NCBI GenBank assembly: GCA_016179955.1
Contig: JACPCD010000007.1
Location: 5,907-69,906 of the forward strand
From: Candidatus Woesearchaeota archaeon
GTDB lineage: Archaea; Nanobdellota; Nanobdellia; Woesearchaeales; GW2011-AR9
Length of the DNA: 64,000 nt
Reading direction: 5' to 3'
The first letter of the stretch is position 1; every line of letters begins with the position of its first letter. A program made the translations under genes and the position numbers. The notes below the pieces were generated by a model that was given only the letters and a program-made list of their open reading frames with translations, was not told the DNA's origin and did no database searches. This document shows, piece after piece, positions 876-22,328 of the stretch.

Positions 876-951
876 TTTTGATTATCTGCTCCATAGTTTT
901 TCTCTCCCCGCTTTGAGCCCGGACGGCCTTGTTATTTATTTTTATTTGAAG

Positions 952-1035
952 GGCCGCAGGCGGGAATTGAACCCGCTCCTCTTGCTGTCAGCATAATTCC
1001 ACAGGCAAGAACGCTACCTATACGCTACTGCGGTC
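952..1035 (-). tRNA. tRNA-His (anticodon GUG) with a 12-nt intron in the anticodon loop, encoded G-1 and no encoded CCA
   Basis: The minus-strand cloverleaf was reconstructed by hand. G-1 pairs with discriminator C73. Acceptor is ACCGCAG/CUGCGGC with a single A1·C72 mismatch. D-stem is GCGU/GCGU with two G·U pairs and D-loop AUAGGUA. Anticodon stem is CUUGC/GCAAG and the loop is CUGUGG|A with anticodon GUG. There are 13 nt (AAUUAUGCUGACA) between G37 and stem position 39, so an intron at the canonical 37/38 site. Variable loop is AGGA and the T-arm is GCGGG-UUCAAUU-CCCGC. Confidence 0.8.
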
Positions 1036-4896: not shown

Positions 4897-6433
4897 TCAA
4901 ATCACCAACACCTGCTGTTTCCGAACCACGCGAACTTTCAACGAGGTCGCATGCCCTAAGAACTCTCCACCCGCCTGTAACGGGAAAGGCCTTTTGCTGG
5001 CAAGAATTATCTCTTTTCCCCGCAAAGATAACAACGGCGGCTTGTCGGTATTGGTTAACGCTAACAATAAGCCCCATAACCGTACCGCTTTATTCAGTAG
5101 ATGGGCATGAGTATTAATAACCGCCGTGGCATATACTTTACCATCATCCGGAACCACTCGACCCAGCAGCGAGCGCATCGCAAACCCATAATATGGAATC
5201 TTCCCGAGCGTAAAGTTGACACAGTTCGGGAAATGAAATTTCTTTCCATCGACATAACAATTAAGGTCATATCCATTCTTAGACCATAAGACCGTCCGCA
5301 GGCTGCTAGCAAGATAGCCCAAAAAACCGCGCTGCTGGCCTTTTTGGTAGCGAATCACGTCCGCATCAATGCCCAGAGCTATAAACGTAGTCTGGATTTT
5401 ACGGTGGTTCCATTCTAATTCCAAGACGTCCATCGATGCTTCCTGGAAATGAAAACGCGAACGCAGGTACTCAAACCGTTTGCCTTTATAGAAATAAGAA
5501 TAATATGCGTTCCCCGCCCCTAAGGGAAAAAACCCTAATTTTTTGTTCCAGAAAGGGCGATAATTCAAAGCACTTATATGCGTTCCCCGCCCCTAAGGGA
5601 AAAAACCCTAATTTTTTGTTCCAGAAAGGGCGATAATTCAAAGCACTTTCAAATGAGCCATCGCCACCGGCAATGATGAGATTATCAGTGGGCGCAATAT
5701 TTTTTTCTACACTTCGATACATGTTAGGAGCAGCCGGAAGATAGTGTACTTCTGCTCCCCGCCTCTTGGCAAACAGCCGCAGCAAATGTCTTCGATAGCG
5801 GTCATTATAGGCGCTGGATTGGGGATTAGCAAGAATAACCATCGTTCCCGCCTCTACTTTTTTGCGCTCCTGCCAATGTTTATGCGCACCCTTGCCATAG
5901 TGCAACGCATGATAGAGGATGGAAGCTGCGGCCAAGACTAACACTGCTGCCGTCAACACGAACAGCGCCACTGCCGACATTAAGGCTTGATCAAAAAGAG
6001 ATGAGTACCAAAAAAAGTCCTCCAGCAACAGGCTGAACAAAATAGCGTACTGAAGATAGACCATTGACTTGCGATAGCTCTCTTCAGGAATGAGGATATC
6101 ATCTTGCGACGCCAGCCAGCGGACGATGCCCACACTTACATCTCGAACGATAAAGAAAACAAAAGGAACTTTCCAGAATTTTCCCTGCAGTACGAACAGC
6201 AGCAACAGCCCCATCACTAAGATTTTATCGGCAAAGGGATCGAGGAAAGAGCCAATTCTGGTGGTTTCAGCACGCTTCCGGGCGACGTACCCATCAACGA
6301 TGTCCGTGATAATAGCAACACCTAGCAACACCATGGCCCAGGCAGACGCCGTCGCTGTTTCCTGCAGGATCAGAAGAATAAGCAAGGGCAAAAAAGCAAT
6401 GCGGGTTAAGGTAATGATGTTCGCCAGGTTCAT
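4897..6433 (-). pseudogene. CDP-alcohol phosphatidyltransferase fused to a DAG-kinase-like lipid kinase catalytic domain (GGDGS); the frame is broken by a 73-bp tandem duplication
   Basis: ORF 5486..6433 has the CDP-OH-P-transferase motif DGYVARKRAETTRIGSFLDPFADK followed by GGDGS. ORF 4897..5568 continues the DAGK_cat-like domain. Both ORFs contain the same peptide NYRPFWNKKLGFFPLGAGNAY, which is encoded by the duplicated 73 bp. Confidence 0.6.
5502..5647. repeat. Perfect 73-bp direct tandem duplication (2 copies) inside a coding sequence
   Basis: 5502-5574 is identical to 5575-5647 (atatgcgttccccgcccctaagggaaaaaaccctaattttttgttccagaaagggcgataattcaaagcactt). 73 is not a multiple of 3, so the duplication frameshifts the gene. 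Confidence 0.9.
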
Positions 6434-17284: not shown

Positions 17285-18757
17285 ATGAAAACATTTCAAA
17301 ATTTGGAAACAGAAAAAAGCTTTTTTAGAGAAAAATGTTGTATTAGCTACGGTGACCAAAAAGTCTACTTTAATGAAATTATCCTGCCAAATCAGTTTAA
17401 GAAACTGTATTCCAAAGAGCGAATAATGCTCAGATTAAAGAAAGCGATTAACACCGCCAGCAGCCGGCCATCCTTTAACATCCCTTCTTCGTTGTGCCAA
17501 AAAAATGGGATAGAACCAGGTAAGATAGTAATTCTCCGGATAACTAACTCAAAGAAAACCTACGAAATAATAACCAAAGTTGGTGCTTGGAGGAGGATAA
17601 ATGTACCAAGAGAAGTAATCGATAGTCTTAATATTGTCCACGAGCAAAAAGTAATCATCGAGATTATTAAAGAAACAGACCACCGCAATTCAGAAAAGAA
17701 AGATTTAGTTTCATTGCTTGAACATAAAAAGAATATTAAAATGATTAATAGAGAAAACAATTATGTAACGATTTACTCCAGAAGAAAATTTCCCATAACT
17801 TTGCCAAAGAAAGTGTCATTAGAACCTGAACTCATAGAGTGTTTTTTCTTAATCCATGGAGACGGCCATTATAAAGAAAAATTATTCTTCACCAACAAAG
17901 ATATTGGGTTACATGAGTCAGTTATTGATCTATTGCAAAAGTACTTGGGCATCCCGACTTCTATATGGAAAATGAGAATAAATTTACATGAATCTTACAG
18001 AGAGAAAGAAGCTAAAAACTTCTGGTTAAATAATTTGAAATTTGATAAGCGACAATTTTATCCATCCATATCGAGAACAAAATTCAATACTTCTGCTCAA
18101 GGAAATTTGAGAATAGTAATAGATTATCCTATTGTTTCGGAGATTTTTAGAAACATCTTTATTTATATGCAACAAAATCTAAACCGAAAATCTAGCTTTT
18201 ATGCACTGAATGGCCTGTTCGCTGCGGAGGGCGGAGCACAAATAAGTGAAGTTGGACTGCATAGAATAACTTTAAGCTATAATTTTAAAGAGAAAGAAAT
18301 GTTCCAGAAAATATTAAAAAATTGTAATGTTCTTCACTTATTTAAAGATATTGAACAAGGAAATAATCACGGCATTTTTGTGTTGGAAGGCTGGGAAAAA
18401 TTATACCTTTTCTTTAAAGAGTTTGCCATTAAAAAAATTACACCATTTAACTTCCATAACGCTCGAAAACAAAGAGCCATTAATGGGATGATAGAACACT
18501 CTTTTACCAAAACGATGTGCAAATACTTAATGGCATTAAGTCAAAACAAAAAATACACTGTAAAAGAATTTTCAGAAAAACTCCAGATGAGAGAAGATTC
18601 ATGTTTATCTACATTAAGAAAAAAACAATATTCACCATTTATCAACATCAGTGGGCTAGGGATAAATAAGCAACCTTTTTCTATTTCAATAACCAAGCAA
18701 GGTCAAGAATTATTAACCATTATTTCAACTATGCGAGGTGAAAAGATGCATGAATAA
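17285..18757 (+). CDS. LAGLIDADG-type homing-endonuclease-like protein (two degenerate LAGLIDADG motifs) inside an AT-rich insertion
   Basis: 490 aa. Motifs FFLIHGDGHY and LNGLFAAEGGAQ lie about 100 aa apart. GC content is far below the flanking genes. The ORF overlaps the cbf5 start by 20 nt. Confidence 0.5.
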   Translation: MKTFQNLETEKSFFREKCCISYGDQKVYFNEIILPNQFKKLYSKERIMLRLKKAINTASSRPSFNIPSSLCQKNGIEPGKIVILRITNSKKTYEIITKVGAWRRINVPREVIDSLNIVHEQKVIIEIIKETDHRNSEKKDLVSLLEHKKNIKMINRENNYVTIYSRRKFPITLPKKVSLEPELIECFFLIHGDGHYKEKLFFTNKDIGLHESVIDLLQKYLGIPTSIWKMRINLHESYREKEAKNFWLNNLKFDKRQFYPSISRTKFNTSAQGNLRIVIDYPIVSEIFRNIFIYMQQNLNRKSSFYALNGLFAAEGGAQISEVGLHRITLSYNFKEKEMFQKILKNCNVLHLFKDIEQGNNHGIFVLEGWEKLYLFFKEFAIKKITPFNFHNARKQRAINGMIEHSFTKTMCKYLMALSQNKKYTVKEFSEKLQMREDSCLSTLRKKQYSPFINISGLGINKQPFSISITKQGQELLTIISTMRGEKMHE

Positions 18758-19597
18758 GCAAATATTTGTAAAGAGAAAAAGTATTGGAATCTTTGGAAAA
18801 AAGCCAGAAGAAAGGACTCCAGAAGAGCTTATCCATTATGGTATTATCAACATAGACAAGCTAAAAGGCCCAACCTCCCACCAGGTTTCTGACTATGTTC
18901 AAAGGATATTAGGCATTACCAAAGCTGGCCACTCCGGGACCTTAGAGCTATAATCAAGGAAATCCTCAAGTGACTGGTGTTCAGCCTATTGCCTTAGACA
19001 GAGCTACGCGTATCACCCAGTTTCTGTTAGCCGCGCCTAAAGAATATGTTGGTATTATGCATTTACATAAAGCGGTAGAGGAAGAAAAAATAAAAGAAGC
19101 AGTCCACTCTTTTTTAGGTAAAATAATGCAGCTTCCCCCGGTGAAAAGCGCCGTGAAGCGGGTGCAGCGGGAACGAGAGATCTACGAATTTAACCTGCTG
19201 GAAATAAAAGACAAAGACGTGTTGTTCCGGGTACGATGCCAGGCTGGCACGTATATCCGAAAATTAGTCCATGATTTGGGGCAGGCATTAGGAATCGGCG
19301 CGCACATGACCGAACTTCGGCGAACCCAAGCCGGGCCCGGTAGAAAAAGCATTGAAGTATATCCCCAAATGCTGGATTCTTGACTCCACCATTCCCAGCG
19401 TCTCGCATGGGCGAGACGTGGCGATTCCCGGCATCAGCAAATTAGAGAATTTCCGAAAAGGGGAAATTGTGGCGGTAATGACTCTGAAAGAGGAATTGGT
19501 GGCTATCGGTAAGAGTATGATGTCGGCAGTAGAAATTAACACTCAGCAGAAAGGGATTGCGATTGATGTGGAGAAAGTGTTTAACCATACTACTTAA
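18738..19597 (+). CDS. cbf5: tRNA/rRNA pseudouridine synthase Cbf5 (TruB catalytic domain plus PUA); the frame is interrupted twice
   Basis: Three consecutive ORFs (18738-18953, 18970-19383, 19352-19597) are collinear with archaeal Cbf5 (GPTSHQV, KAGHSGTL | DPQVTGVQPIAL, AGTYIRKL, ELRRTQAGP | KCWILDSTIPSVSHGRDVAIPGI, PUA domain). Confidence 0.8.
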
Positions 19598-19630: not shown

Positions 19631-20350
19631 GTGCCCTTTCAAAGCCGTACAGGAGGATTAAAAACTATGACCCAATTACAATTAGACGGACCAACTGTAC
19701 ATACAACGTATTACGGCAAAAACGTAGAACAAATGCCTAAACTTCTTGCCGAGGGCAAAGAACCAATGAGTGTGGCTCATTTAATGGAACAACGACTGGC
19801 AGTACGAGACCAAGGAGTAAGTCCAGTACAGCATGACGCATGGTGGGGTAATTATTTTGACAATGCTGATTTATGGCTGCGACATCCAGACAAAGGCGGA
19901 AAAGTAGTTCCCTACAGCGCCGCAGTGCTTACCTTTCTTCAAGAACATCTTAAACCCGAAACCAAGTTAGTGGATTATGGAGTTCCCTTACCCGATGGAT
20001 TATACGAAGCCATGGACGGATTAGAATTGAAAACAGCTGATATTGGACGATTGCATTCACGAGGATATACCCCTACAGAAGCCAAGAAATCAGTGGTATG
20101 GAGAGAGTTGGCGCGGACACAAAAACGCTTAGATAACTATGTTGATGCTGTTGTTGTGGAAACGGGCAGAGAGCGAGACTTAATGAATACCTACTTTGGT
20201 GAAGCTTCAAAAGTTCCAACCGGGCGGCTTTGGTTTGTCAGCGGCAGGAACAACGATTCCCTTGCGGGTGGCAACTACAATCTTACCCTTGACTATGGTC
20301 GCCTGGTCGGGGTAGCGCCGGAGGCGCACGTCGCGCGCGCAAAAAAATAA
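19631..20350 (+). CDS. DGR target protein; the C-terminus carries the variable repeat
   Basis: 239 aa. The last ~32 codons (20220-20316) match the downstream template repeat, with every mismatch at a template adenine. Confidence 0.75.
   Translation: MPFQSRTGGLKTMTQLQLDGPTVHTTYYGKNVEQMPKLLAEGKEPMSVAHLMEQRLAVRDQGVSPVQHDAWWGNYFDNADLWLRHPDKGGKVVPYSAAVLTFLQEHLKPETKLVDYGVPLPDGLYEAMDGLELKTADIGRLHSRGYTPTEAKKSVVWRELARTQKRLDNYVDAVVVETGRERDLMNTYFGEASKVPTGRLWFVSGRNNDSLAGGNYNLTLDYGRLVGVAPEAHVARAKK
20220..20316 (+). repeat. DGR variable repeat (VR)
   Basis: About 97 nt aligned to TR 20542-20638. The 14 differences all fall at TR adenines (TR AAC/AAT codons versus VR AGC, GGC, CTT, GGT, TAC, TAT). Confidence 0.85.
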
Positions 20351-20541
20351 GAAGTCTACACCACCAATATCTTTTTATATCTCCTTCTTTTTTCTTCGTT
20401 GTCCCAGCATCAGCCATGAAGGCTGTACCATGAGCTGGACTACACGTCTTTCCACCACGGCAGCACGGCTGCTATAAAATACAGCCCCAACTTGATGCAT
20501 AGCACTGAAGGGGCAGTGATATAGTCCGTGGAAGGGCTACT

Positions 20542-20638
20542 CCGGGCGGCTTTGGTATGTCAACAACAGGAACAACGATTCCAATGCGAATGGCAACAAC
20601 AATCTTACCAATGACAATGGTCGCCTGGTCGGAATAGA
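20542..20638 (+). repeat. DGR template repeat (TR)
   Basis: Adenine-rich (many AAC/AAT codons). Non-coding on its own but in frame with and immediately upstream of the RT ORF. Confidence 0.85.
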
Positions 20639-20669
20639 CCTGCTCATTTTTGCTGGGATATTTTCCCCT

Positions 20670-22328
20670 ATGGAAATTTCAACCATTTCTCTTTTTGACC
20701 AGCTATGCCATTATGATAATTTATATCTGGCATATTGGAAAGCACGAAAAGGAAAGACACAGAGAAAATACGTTCTTGACTTTGAAGAAAAATTACAGGA
20801 AAATCTTCTGCGGTTGCAGCAAGAACTTCAGTCTCAAACATATCATCCGAAGCCTTTAGAAACATTCATTCTCCGCGATCCCAAGACCAGGAAAATCAGT
20901 AAGTCTGATTTTCGTGACCGTGTTGTCCATCATGCACTCTGCAATATCATTGAACCGTTGTTTGAAAAAGGCTTTATTTATGATTCCTATGCCAACCGAA
21001 GAGGAAAAGGAACATTGAAAGCAGTACAACGATTTGATGAATTTAAGAAAAATGTTTCTAAAAATAATACCACTATTTGTTTCGTGTTAAAAGCAGACAT
21101 TAAGCATTATTTTGAAACTGTTGATCATGATATTTTATTAAGTATACTGAGTCAGAGAATTCATGATGAGAAGGTATTATGGCTAACCAAGATAATTCTG
21201 TCCAACCATTCCACCACCGCCCCAGGCACAGGAATGCCTCTGGGCAATTTAACATCACAATTTTTTGCCAACATCTATCTTAATGAGTTGGATCAATTTG
21301 TAAAACATACTCTCAAAGCAAGGTATTACATTCGATACGTTGATGACTTTGTGATTCTTCACTCATCCAGCAATCTATTGAAAATGTATGAACAGAAGAT
21401 AGGTTTATTCTTGCGGGAAAAGTTAGCCTTAGAACTTCATCCGCACAAATCAAAAATTGTTAACCTAGAATCAGGCGTTCATTTCTTAGGATTCAGGATA
21501 TTCTATCATTACCGGCTCATTCGAAAGAAAAATATGCATAAGTCTCAACAAAAGTTTCGGCAGCTACAGCAAGAATATCAGGAAGGATTGCTTAATCGGG
21601 AGAAAGTTATCGAATATCTTGAAGGCTGGCTGGCGTTTGCATCACAGGCAAATACCTATAAATATCGAAGATGGTTAATACGGTGGTTTAACCAAGCTTT
21701 TCCATTGGAACAAAAGACACCCCTGGTGGTTTTACAAAAACATCAGAACCTGATGATAAAATCGGAAGAAAGCCAGATACAATTTACCGTTCAGAAAACA
21801 CTTCAATTATTCAGAAAATGTTGGTCTATTTCCCAAATCGCGAGGGCCAGAGACATTACAGAATCTACGGTGTGGGCCCATTTGGCAAATCTGGTCGAAC
21901 ATTATCAAATACCACTGGCTAAGGTAATTCCAAAAGAAAAAATTATTAAAATTCTTCCAAAAATTAGGAATGAAAAAGAAACGTTGAAAGAAATTAAACA
22001 GAAGATTAATGATGCTTCCATAACTTATGAGGAGATAAATTGCGGCCTCGCAAGTATAAAAGCAAAGAAGAAGAAAAGAGGTATTGTCCCCATTGTTTCA
22101 AACTTTCAGCGAACAAATTGTTATCGCAAATGTTATTTTAATCCTCATCAGCGAAAAACATGTGCAAAGAAATTTGAATTATTCTGTTCCCATAATTCGA
22201 CACTGAAAATGAACCCCCAAGAATTTGTGGATTTATTTCAGAATCATATGACCATTTGCGTTCTTCCGGTGAAAGAGAGAAAAAATTACGTTTCGTGGAG
22301 AGAGTTTAGGAAGAATACATGGAAGTAA
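20670..22328 (+). CDS. DGR reverse transcriptase with a C-terminal HTH and cysteine-rich extension
   Basis: 552 aa. RT motifs include YIRYVDDFVI (YxDD) and the DGR-diagnostic PLGNLTSQFFANIY (LGxxxSQ). The C-terminus has ISQIARARDITESTVWAHLANL (sigma-70 region 4/LuxR-like HTH) and five Cys. Confidence 0.9.
   Translation: MEISTISLFDQLCHYDNLYLAYWKARKGKTQRKYVLDFEEKLQENLLRLQQELQSQTYHPKPLETFILRDPKTRKISKSDFRDRVVHHALCNIIEPLFEKGFIYDSYANRRGKGTLKAVQRFDEFKKNVSKNNTTICFVLKADIKHYFETVDHDILLSILSQRIHDEKVLWLTKIILSNHSTTAPGTGMPLGNLTSQFFANIYLNELDQFVKHTLKARYYIRYVDDFVILHSSSNLLKMYEQKIGLFLREKLALELHPHKSKIVNLESGVHFLGFRIFYHYRLIRKKNMHKSQQKFRQLQQEYQEGLLNREKVIEYLEGWLAFASQANTYKYRRWLIRWFNQAFPLEQKTPLVVLQKHQNLMIKSEESQIQFTVQKTLQLFRKCWSISQIARARDITESTVWAHLANLVEHYQIPLAKVIPKEKIIKILPKIRNEKETLKEIKQKINDASITYEEINCGLASIKAKKKKRGIVPIVSNFQRTNCYRKCYFNPHQRKTCAKKFELFCSHNSTLKMNPQEFVDLFQNHMTICVLPVKERKNYVSWREFRKNTWK

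Follow-up and report, generated by a model that had tools for sequence, protein, structure and literature searches.

Within a 64,000-nt stretch of the contig JACPCD010000007.1 from Candidatus Woesearchaeota archaeon (positions 5,907 to 69,906 of the forward strand; hereafter the window), a gene for a target protein, a pair of imperfect repeats and a reverse transcriptase (RT) gene are arranged one after another on the + strand. One copy, the variable repeat (VR), lies within the target gene near its 3′ end, and the other, the template repeat (TR), lies between the two genes. Judged from its sequence, the cassette is a diversity-generating retroelement (DGR) on the chromosome of a member of Woesearchaeota (DPANN), in which target/VR, TR and RT stand in the expected order and all parts of a DGR except Avd are present. 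To our knowledge, no natural system of prokaryotes other than DGRs hypermutates proteins in a targeted way. DGRs are abundant in DPANN organisms and those of the candidate phyla radiation (CPR). The VRs of DGRs are located in the 3′ part of the target gene, and their variable codons are displayed on a ligand-binding fold, usually a C-type lectin.

A repeat search of the window returned VR and TR as ungapped direct repeats of 96 nt with an offset of 322 nt and 85% identity. A preliminary description of this DNA had claimed that all 14 differences between the two copies fall on adenines of TR, and the pairwise alignment with a per-position base tally gave exactly this count (14/14; A>G 7, A>T 5, A>C 2), with zero substitutions at C, G or T of TR inside the block. 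TR has 30 adenines, 14 of which are altered in VR and 16 of which are kept. The probability that 14 random differences among 96 positions all fall on 30 adenines is P = 6e-9 (hypergeometric). The edges of the homology are sharp, because an extension of 4–5 nt on either side runs into non-A differences in unrelated flanking sequence. When the 64-kb window was searched with a TR(A->N) pattern, VR was the sole other match and no further VRs were found.

In the reading frame of the target, the codon changes from TR to VR are TAT>TTT, AAC>AGC, AAC>GGC, AAT>CTT, AAT>GGT, AAC>TAC, AAT>CTT, AAT>TAT, GGA>GGG and ATA>GTA. The codons given in the preliminary description were correct, but TTT (from TAT) had been omitted; the adenines of AGG AAC AAC GAT and AAT CTT ACC are kept in VR, as it had stated. 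Twelve differences fall in eight variable codons, and the remaining two, which are the 3′-most ones (20633/20634; GGAATAG in TR versus GGGGTAG in VR), are located at the boundary of the initiation of mutagenic homing (IMH) sequence. Because the latter match the published dinucleotide contrast between the IMH of VR and its counterpart in TR (IMH*) and recur in relatives, they do not represent two independent random events. The adenines of TR are distributed over codon positions 1, 2 and 3 as 14/15/2 in the target frame. TR thus designed holds 16 variable codons and can encode ~6.6e15 possible peptides, and a stop codon is never reachable.

VR ends with GGTCGG-GG-TAG, whereas TR ends with GGTCGG-AA-TAG. 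The contrast is repeated in the relatives, where the dinucleotide is GG, TG, AG or GT in VR and AA in TR. Nanoarchaeota DGRs have an IMH with TGGGGT versus an IMH* with TGGAAT, and a GRA-triloop hairpin inside the target gene (Paul et al. 2015, PMC4372165). The corresponding hairpin of this cassette is found once in the window, directly 3′ of VR, and a hairpin is present 3′ of every related VR. It overlaps an Ala-Pro-Glu-Ala run of the target protein, and each of the 47 such runs in the fetched loci is encoded by GCG CCR GAG GCG with no other synonymous variant. The invariance at synonymous sites indicates that, besides the protein, the nucleotide sequence itself is under selection. We infer that the IMH and the hairpin take part in homing.

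VR corresponds to codons 185–216 of the 227-codon target open reading frame (ORF). The predicted fold of the target matches that of AvpA, the variable protein of Nanoarchaeota DGRs, which belongs to the AvpA subclass of C-type lectins. The target had no match in Pfam or NCBIfam, and a sequence profile of its family gave no meaningful match in the PDB; the likeness to AvpA came from the fold only. Among its homologues (n = 74), every one with a named source comes from Woesearchaeota or Nanoarchaeota. Their alignment shows that the scaffold GRLW.V...S.A.G...L....GRLVGVAPEA is conserved, whereas the positions of the AAY or A-containing codons of TR are hypervariable. No relatives of the target were found in the IMG/VR viral contigs, and the target family therefore looks cellular rather than viral. 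By eye, the target protein has neither a signal peptide nor a hydrophobic segment, and it may be cytoplasmic like AvpA. Identical database proteins from a Candidatus Woesearchaeota metagenome-assembled genome are annotated in their deposited entries as “hypothetical protein” for the target and “helix-turn-helix domain-containing protein” for the RT.

The RT ORF begins 32 nt past TR and is intact over 552 aa, with all residues that are invariant in the family kept. It contains LGNLTSQ (aa 191–197), YVDD (aa 223–226) and the equivalent of Arg74 of the Bordetella phage DGR RT (bRT); the signature residues and the Arg74 equivalent are invariant across 34 homologues. DGR RTs are marked by [I/V/L]GxxxSQ in place of QGxxxSP, and Arg74 and the first signature residue (Ile181) of bRT promote adenine mutagenesis (PMC7826257). 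Among solved structures, the top match was the 328-aa RT of PDB 8ub7–8ube (8ub7_A; 173 bits, E = 8e-50, residues 7–339), and group II intron and retron RTs reached at most 94 bits against the same RT. The molecule in these entries was deposited as “Reverse transcriptase”, and from its sequence we take it to be bRT. The motifs and this similarity indicate that the RT belongs to the DGR clade. A group II intron was considered and rejected, because the RT matches the group II intron model below its cut-off, has a much higher score with the phage DGR RT and is not accompanied by RNA structure on both sides of its gene. In several relatives (the RT homologues P0087, P0105 and P0138), the RT ORF was called from a start further upstream and includes TR in frame, resulting in Asn-rich N-termini such as WYLNNRNNDSNANSNNNLNNNNGRLVGIVKL (compare 20541–20669 of the window). 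Automated annotation thus hides TR within an “RT protein”.

A scan of one genome per species yielded 47 loci with genes for target relatives. A simple repeat finder detected VR/TR pairs in 17 DPANN loci among these 47 (18 pairs), and in the summed tallies of the 18 pairs, ~219 of 224 mismatches were at TR adenines. The TRs vary between loci at many non-A positions, and each VR matches its own TR there, indicating concerted evolution. At the mutated TR adenines of the 17 loci and the window taken together, the VR bases are ~64% G, 31% T and 5% C. For bRT in vitro, dATP is most frequently misincorporated (PMC7826257), which would yield A>T. The predominance of A>G (~64% across loci) differs from this pattern (A>T most frequent), and selection confounds the comparison; it may reflect either a different error spectrum of the archaeal RT or selection for Gly, Ser and Asp codons. 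In two loci, L013 (4848–4939 and 5543–5634) and L029 (681–764 and 1583–1668), a single TR is accompanied by two VRs in adjacent paralogous target genes, so some members of the family diversify two proteins from one template. One locus (L011, SCGC AAA011-G17) ends before its TR and was unusable, and another (L001) was not used because its VR is gapped by an indel and has one non-A mismatch.

The closest relative is a sister lineage (L005) with 91–95% nucleotide identity to the window. Its TR differs from that of the window only by C53T and T80C, both at non-adenine positions, and the same two changes are found in its VR. Otherwise, 15 positions distinguish the VRs of the two lineages, and each of them is a TR adenine. 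Among these are adenines 30, 33 and 37, at which the VR of the window retains the A of its TR. Because the changes in TR are mirrored in VR, we regard this comparison of sequences as good evidence for a transfer from TR to VR after the two lineages split. It also lends support to the phrase “recently active” in the preliminary description. The contig of the sister lineage (JAUYPT010000112.1, 1–2538) is permuted relative to the window, in the order of the 3′ half of VR, RNA, TR, RT ORF, target and the 5′ half of VR. Where the two VR fragments overlap, they differ at TR adenines 48 and 49 and nowhere else, a sign that the assembly contains two alleles of VR. The layout may be explained either by population heterogeneity that broke the assembly or by a tandem second copy. 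The RT ORF of this lineage has 426 codons, and its homology to the window ends after ~390.

TR appears to be embedded in a structured RNA. The predicted DGR RNA of ~265 nt (20398–20662) consists of a structured 5′ part, which corresponds to the Rfam RT-16 motif, followed by TR and a short 3′ tail, which folds back to pair with this 5′ part. The RT-16 covariance model was matched over its full length (model positions 1–158), with 56.3 bits against a gathering threshold of 50. Scores above the threshold were also obtained in 16 of 18 related loci (57.9–81.3 bits); TR was mapped in 14 of these 16, and in all 14 the 3′ end of RT-16 abuts TR, lying within ~5 nt of its start. The first modelled hairpin of RT-16 fits these loci poorly (low posterior probability). 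Fifteen loci share a common layout that consists of a TATA-like box, strand A, a variable hairpin, strand B, the linker RYUAYAYG, helix C, the P3 hairpin, the invariant AUAAAAUACA, helix D, C′, GCUAC, TR, B′ and A′, and the RT start codon follows 5–26 nt later where it can be located. In 12 of the 15 loci, a TT[TA]ATA box precedes the CCYAG core of strand A by 28–31 nt. This box would drive transcription of the DGR RNA, which is probably the leader of the RT mRNA. The coordinates of all features are listed in Table 1.

Table 1. Features of the DGR cassette in the window (positions are those of the window).
Feature	Position	Strand	Remarks
Target (variable) protein gene	19667–20350	+	227 aa; predicted AvpA-like C-type-lectin fold; VR near C-terminus
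VR	20220–20315	+	96 nt; 14 differences from TR, all at TR adenines
IMH-like 3′ end of VR (GGTCGCCTGGTCGG-GGTAG)	20297–20315	+	GG at 20311–20312 versus AA in TR
Inverted repeat GCGCC-GGA-GGCGC	20315–20327	+	5-bp stem, GRA triloop; directly 3′ of VR, in target ORF (Ala-Pro-Glu-Ala)
TATA-like box TTTTTATAT	20372–20380	+	putative archaeal promoter of DGR RNA/RT transcript
Strand A of outer long-range helix (TGTCCCAGCA)	20400–20409	+	partner A′ at 20651–20660
Rfam RT-16 RNA (RF03019)	20410–20545	+	structured 5′ part of predicted DGR RNA; 56.3 bits
RT-16 internal hairpin	20411–20425	+	
Strand B	20429–20438	+	
Strand B and linker CUA	20429–20442	+	pairs with terminal UAG of TR and B′ (20635–20647); proposed template:primer duplex
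Linker ACUACACG	20439–20446	+	
Helix C	20446–20455 with C′ 20528–20537	+	compensatory changes
P3 hairpin	20459–20473	+	
Conserved AUAAAAUACA	20474–20483	+	followed by helix D/D′
TR	20542–20637	+	96 nt; 30 adenines, 11 AAY codons; IMH* GGAATAG at 20631–20637
Strand B′ (CCUGCUCAU)	20639–20647	+	directly 3′ of TR
Strand A′ (UGCUGGGAUA)	20651–20660	+	10 nt before RT start codon
DGR RT	20670–22328	+	552 aa; RT core ~aa 1–340
RVT_1 in RT	20883–21500	+	aa 72–277
HTH_40 in RT	21786–22043	+	aa 373–458; RecQ-C-terminal-like
Conserved Cys cluster in RT	22119–22259	+	C484/C488/C498/C530

Covariation was examined in a MAFFT alignment of the RNAs from which the centre of TR was removed, with slid partners and 500 shuffles as controls; one locus with a large insertion in the RNA (L044) was left out. 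In this alignment, 89.9% of the cells are in standard pairs, compared with 35–48% in the slid controls. Compensatory changes were found in 23 pairs, and none of the 500 shuffles reached the observed values. Changes on both sides of the pair occur in 5 of 10 pairs in helix A, 8 of 10 in helix C and 5 of 5 in helix D. In an alignment-free comparison of duplex energies, the mean for B:B′ was −10.9 kcal/mol within loci and −6.5 kcal/mol across loci, and that for A:A′ was −15.4 versus −12.0 kcal/mol. For each of the two helices, 0 of 20000 permutations gave an energy as low, whereas the control duplexes A:B′ and B:A′ were not significant. The YUA of the linker pairs with the last three bases of TR (UAR) in 15 of 15 loci, including three swaps from C:G to U:A. 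The minimum free energy (MFE) fold of the 265-nt RNA of the window recovered every helix (z = −3.3), and 0 of 200 shuffles were as stable.

The cassette shares many properties with the DGR of Bordetella phage BPP-1 (Mtd/Avd/TR/Sp/bRT), including the adenine-specific transfer from TR to VR, a homologous RT core (8e-50) with [I/V/L]GxxxSQ and R74, a target with the C-type lectin fold, an IMH and a downstream hairpin. In contrast to BPP-1, the host here is a cellular archaeon, Avd is not encoded, and the RT extends into a C-terminal HTH_40/Cys4 module, which bRT (328 aa) lacks. In the ribonucleoprotein of the Bordetella phage, a contiguous stretch of the downstream Spacer (Sp) forms two adjacent duplexes with TR looped out between them (Handa et al., 10.1101/2023.10.23.563531). 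One is formed with the 3′ end of TR (template:primer, primed from Sp A56) and the other with the segment just 5′ of TR (“cPRT Stop”), and upstream and downstream “Stop” duplexes were predicted in 207 Avd-containing DGRs (10.1101/2023.10.23.563531). The RNA proposed here has the same topology and strand order, with one contiguous segment duplexed with the 3′ end and the 5′ flank of TR. However, the duplex-forming segment and most of the structured RNA (RT-16) are upstream of TR, whereas the phage has Sp downstream (Rfam RT-10, PMC5737381). A phage-type structured spacer was not found downstream of TR, where only 32 nt are available before the RT start codon. Another difference from BPP-1 is an additional outer helix, A:A′, by which the entire RNA is closed.

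The cassette is also close to the DGRs with AvpA in the DUSEL4 single-cell genomes of Nanoarchaeota (PMC4372165; Handa et al. 2016, PMC5006420), with which it shares the fold, the GGGGT/GGAAT pair of IMH sequences and the GRA-triloop hairpin in the target ORF. The DGRs of CPR and DPANN organisms from groundwater have been described as a “CPR set” with architecture B3 (Paul et al. 2017, summarised in Wu et al. 2018, PMC5758913). The cassette resembles them in habitat type, host group and a compact one-strand organization, and the absence of Avd and the extended RT are within the catalogued variation. Thus, a DGR of this kind is already known in DPANN, and the locus is a previously unannotated DGR that matches the Nanoarchaeota/AvpA subgroup. 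The RNA motifs RT-1 to RT-19 adjoin RT genes; only RT-10 was tied to a DGR, and such a connection was speculated for others (Weinberg et al. 2017, PMC5737381). The covarying helices that span TR (A:A′ and B:B′) are not included in the Rfam model of RT-16 (RF03019), for which the window and 16 related loci exceed the gathering threshold. We did not find the assignment of RT-16 to DGRs, the TR-spanning helices or the permuted RNA layout in the accessible literature, and they may in part have been described already.

Taken together, we consider the locus to be a functional or recently functional DGR, with a probability of roughly 0.92. Several observations weigh against this interpretation. Avd is an accessory protein that is required in the phage DGR system. 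There is no + strand ORF of at least 50 aa between the target and the RT, and no Avd-type Pfam match was found in the 29 other ORFs of the window that were scanned, so that the mechanism must differ from that of the phage in this respect. Likewise, the gene calls of a related locus (L001) place the RT directly after the target with no Avd between them. Lineages that lack Avd amount to 26% of DGRs (avd is present in ~74%), and ~20% of the RTs have C-terminal extensions (Wu et al. 2018, PMC5758913); a missing Avd therefore does not exclude membership in the DGRs. As a guess, the HTH_40/Cys4 extension may supply an RNA- or DNA-binding function and stand in for Avd. Helix B was placed in inconsistent registers by MAFFT, with 61% of its cells paired. 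Because of this misalignment, we used the alignment-free comparison of within-locus and cross-locus duplexes, on which the support for helix B rests. The VR hairpin folded as isolated DNA was not significant (z = +0.99), the MFE structure being an alternative GC pairing, and the support for the hairpin thus rests on the synonymous-site conservation. In a metagenome-assembled genome, VR is represented by a consensus sequence, in which several alleles may be combined as a mosaic. Finally, a scan of JGI public metagenome contigs for A-to-N derivatives of the exact 96-nt TR gave 0 matches.

The last result counts in favour of a relic, namely a formerly active DGR that left its adenine footprint while the target is no longer diversified in this genome. 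This is the main rival explanation, and we regard it as unlikely. It is favoured by the 16 of 30 TR adenines that are unchanged in VR, and by the apparently frame-shifted Cbf5 gene upstream, which hints at local decay or low assembly quality. In addition, the indel and non-A mismatch in the VR of L001 and the loss of RT homology in L005 suggest that some members of the family may be decayed or incomplete. However, the RT ORF is intact over its 552 aa with the family-invariant residues all in place, and the RNA helices, the IMH and the hairpin are intact as well. There are zero non-A differences between TR and VR, while the surrounding DNA differs by 5–9% from the sister lineage, and the latter shows transfer from TR to VR after the split.

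An assembly artefact, in which VR is a chimeric consensus or a repeat mis-join and the 14 differences do not occur together in one cell, is very unlikely. Assemblers do struggle at such sites, as illustrated by the contig of the sister lineage, which breaks inside VR and carries two disagreeing VR fragments. The VR of the window, in contrast, is enclosed in a contig of considerable length (71,889 nt); its reading frame is intact, and it is identical to TR at every non-A position. Even if the consensus were a mosaic, it would have arisen through diversification by a DGR, leaving the interpretation unchanged. An ordinary tandem or segmental duplication or a gene conversion tract with point mutations, in which the adenine bias arose by chance or general mutational bias, could in principle place two direct repeats 322 nt apart, but it is effectively refuted by the P value given above, the strand- and copy-specific asymmetry with A always in the RT-proximal copy, the independent repetition of the pattern in 17 loci with differing TRs, the AAY design that the non-coding A-rich copy keeps in the frame of the target, and the adjacent DGR-clade RT. 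The view of the preliminary description that this is a DGR rather than a duplication is supported accordingly.

On the assumption of a DGR, a possible course of diversification can be outlined. As suggested by its homology and signature motifs, the RT would copy TR into complementary DNA (cDNA) faithfully at C, G and U and with misincorporation opposite A. This cDNA would subsequently take the place of VR at the 3′ end of the AvpA-like gene, which is consistent with the IMH, the hairpin and the concerted change in the sister lineage. The invariant GC-rich segment of the IMH and, just downstream, the GRA-triloop hairpin would guide the replacement, and the outcome would be up to ~7e15 variants of a putative ligand-binding surface, with the scaffold residues fixed. 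By analogy with the ribonucleoprotein of the Bordetella phage, the contiguous B-ACUACACG-C segment may form two adjacent duplexes. In the primer duplex, B and YUA would pair with the 3′ end of TR and its flank, with priming from the invariant linker (A20442–A20444) and the start of cDNA synthesis opposite the IMH* adenines at ~20634. In the stop duplex, C would pair with the 5′ flank of TR, and cDNA synthesis would stop at helix C:C′ (~20541). Such a start and stop would explain the exact limits of the homology between TR and VR. We infer this model of primer and stop duplexes by analogy.

Combining these points, we tentatively propose that the DGR RNA of this large DPANN lineage of DGRs is a circular permutation of that of the Bordetella phage, in which RT-16 is the equivalent of the Spacer, the B-YUAYAYG-C segment clamps both ends of TR, primes at the IMH* adenines (~20634) and stops at the 5′ edge of TR, and no Avd is needed because the RT acquired HTH_40 and Cys4. 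This combined proposal appears plausible to us, though somewhat short of probable.

The cassette is located in a chromosomal archaeal context. It is flanked by genes for S19e, L31e, S3Ae and Cbf5/TruB, and a ribosomal protein cluster is located further on. The Cbf5/TruB pseudouridine synthase gene (18738–19597, +), just upstream of the target, is split over three reading frames, with frame shifts near 18950 (the region of the GHSGTL/DP motif) and at ~19350 (the run GCCGGGCCCGG). The split could represent a pseudogene, strain heterogeneity or assembly indels. The cassettes of L001 (5001–7696) and the window (19667–22328) are homologous, with targets of ~76% identity, and their neighbourhoods are unrelated: prefoldin and SRP54 in the former, and Cbf5, a metallophosphoesterase and S3Ae in the latter. 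Neither an integrase nor terminal repeats were seen for these two cassettes. Contigs with the cassette are also present in bins labelled “uncultured Methanosarcinales” (L004, L006, L007, L038, L040 and L049) and “uncultured Gammaproteobacteria” (L037). These labels are most likely due to mis-binning or mislabelling of DPANN contigs, and could alternatively reflect host association.

Two other regions of the window are of note. Between 55597 and 63840 (−), the G+C content falls from ~45–52% to ~30%. A 1208-aa methyltransferase of the Eco57I/MmeI type, whose specificity domain is TaqI-like, is encoded in this region along with the C-terminal fragment of a helicase, a PD-(D/E)XK nuclease and two proteins (760 aa and 219 aa) that had no Pfam match. 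The region resembles a restriction/defence island gained by horizontal transfer, or else the chimeric end of a contig. The sole tRNA of the window (951–1034, −; 84 nt) was reported by ARAGORN as “tRNA-???” with a 4-base anticodon (gtgg) and scored 47.7 bits with the Rfam tRNA model. It is probably an intron-containing archaeal tRNA.

The locus provides a clean and complete example of a DGR on a housekeeping stretch of a Woesearchaeota chromosome, and DPANN archaea keep such elements despite their minimal genomes. RT-16, which had no assigned function in the work that described it (PMC5737381), now appears as a part of a predicted DGR RNA. The covariation marks the strands that are proposed to clamp TR, and leads to a testable model of how cDNA synthesis starts and stops in a DGR without Avd. 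The single-polypeptide RT (RT + HTH_40 + Cys4) and its RNA of ~265 nt would be an attractive minimal system for reconstitution and for the engineering of targeted mutagenesis. If the proposed circular permutation is true, a function could be assigned to RT-16, and the cassette would stand for an Avd-independent type of DGR that relies on a single protein and is open to reconstitution.

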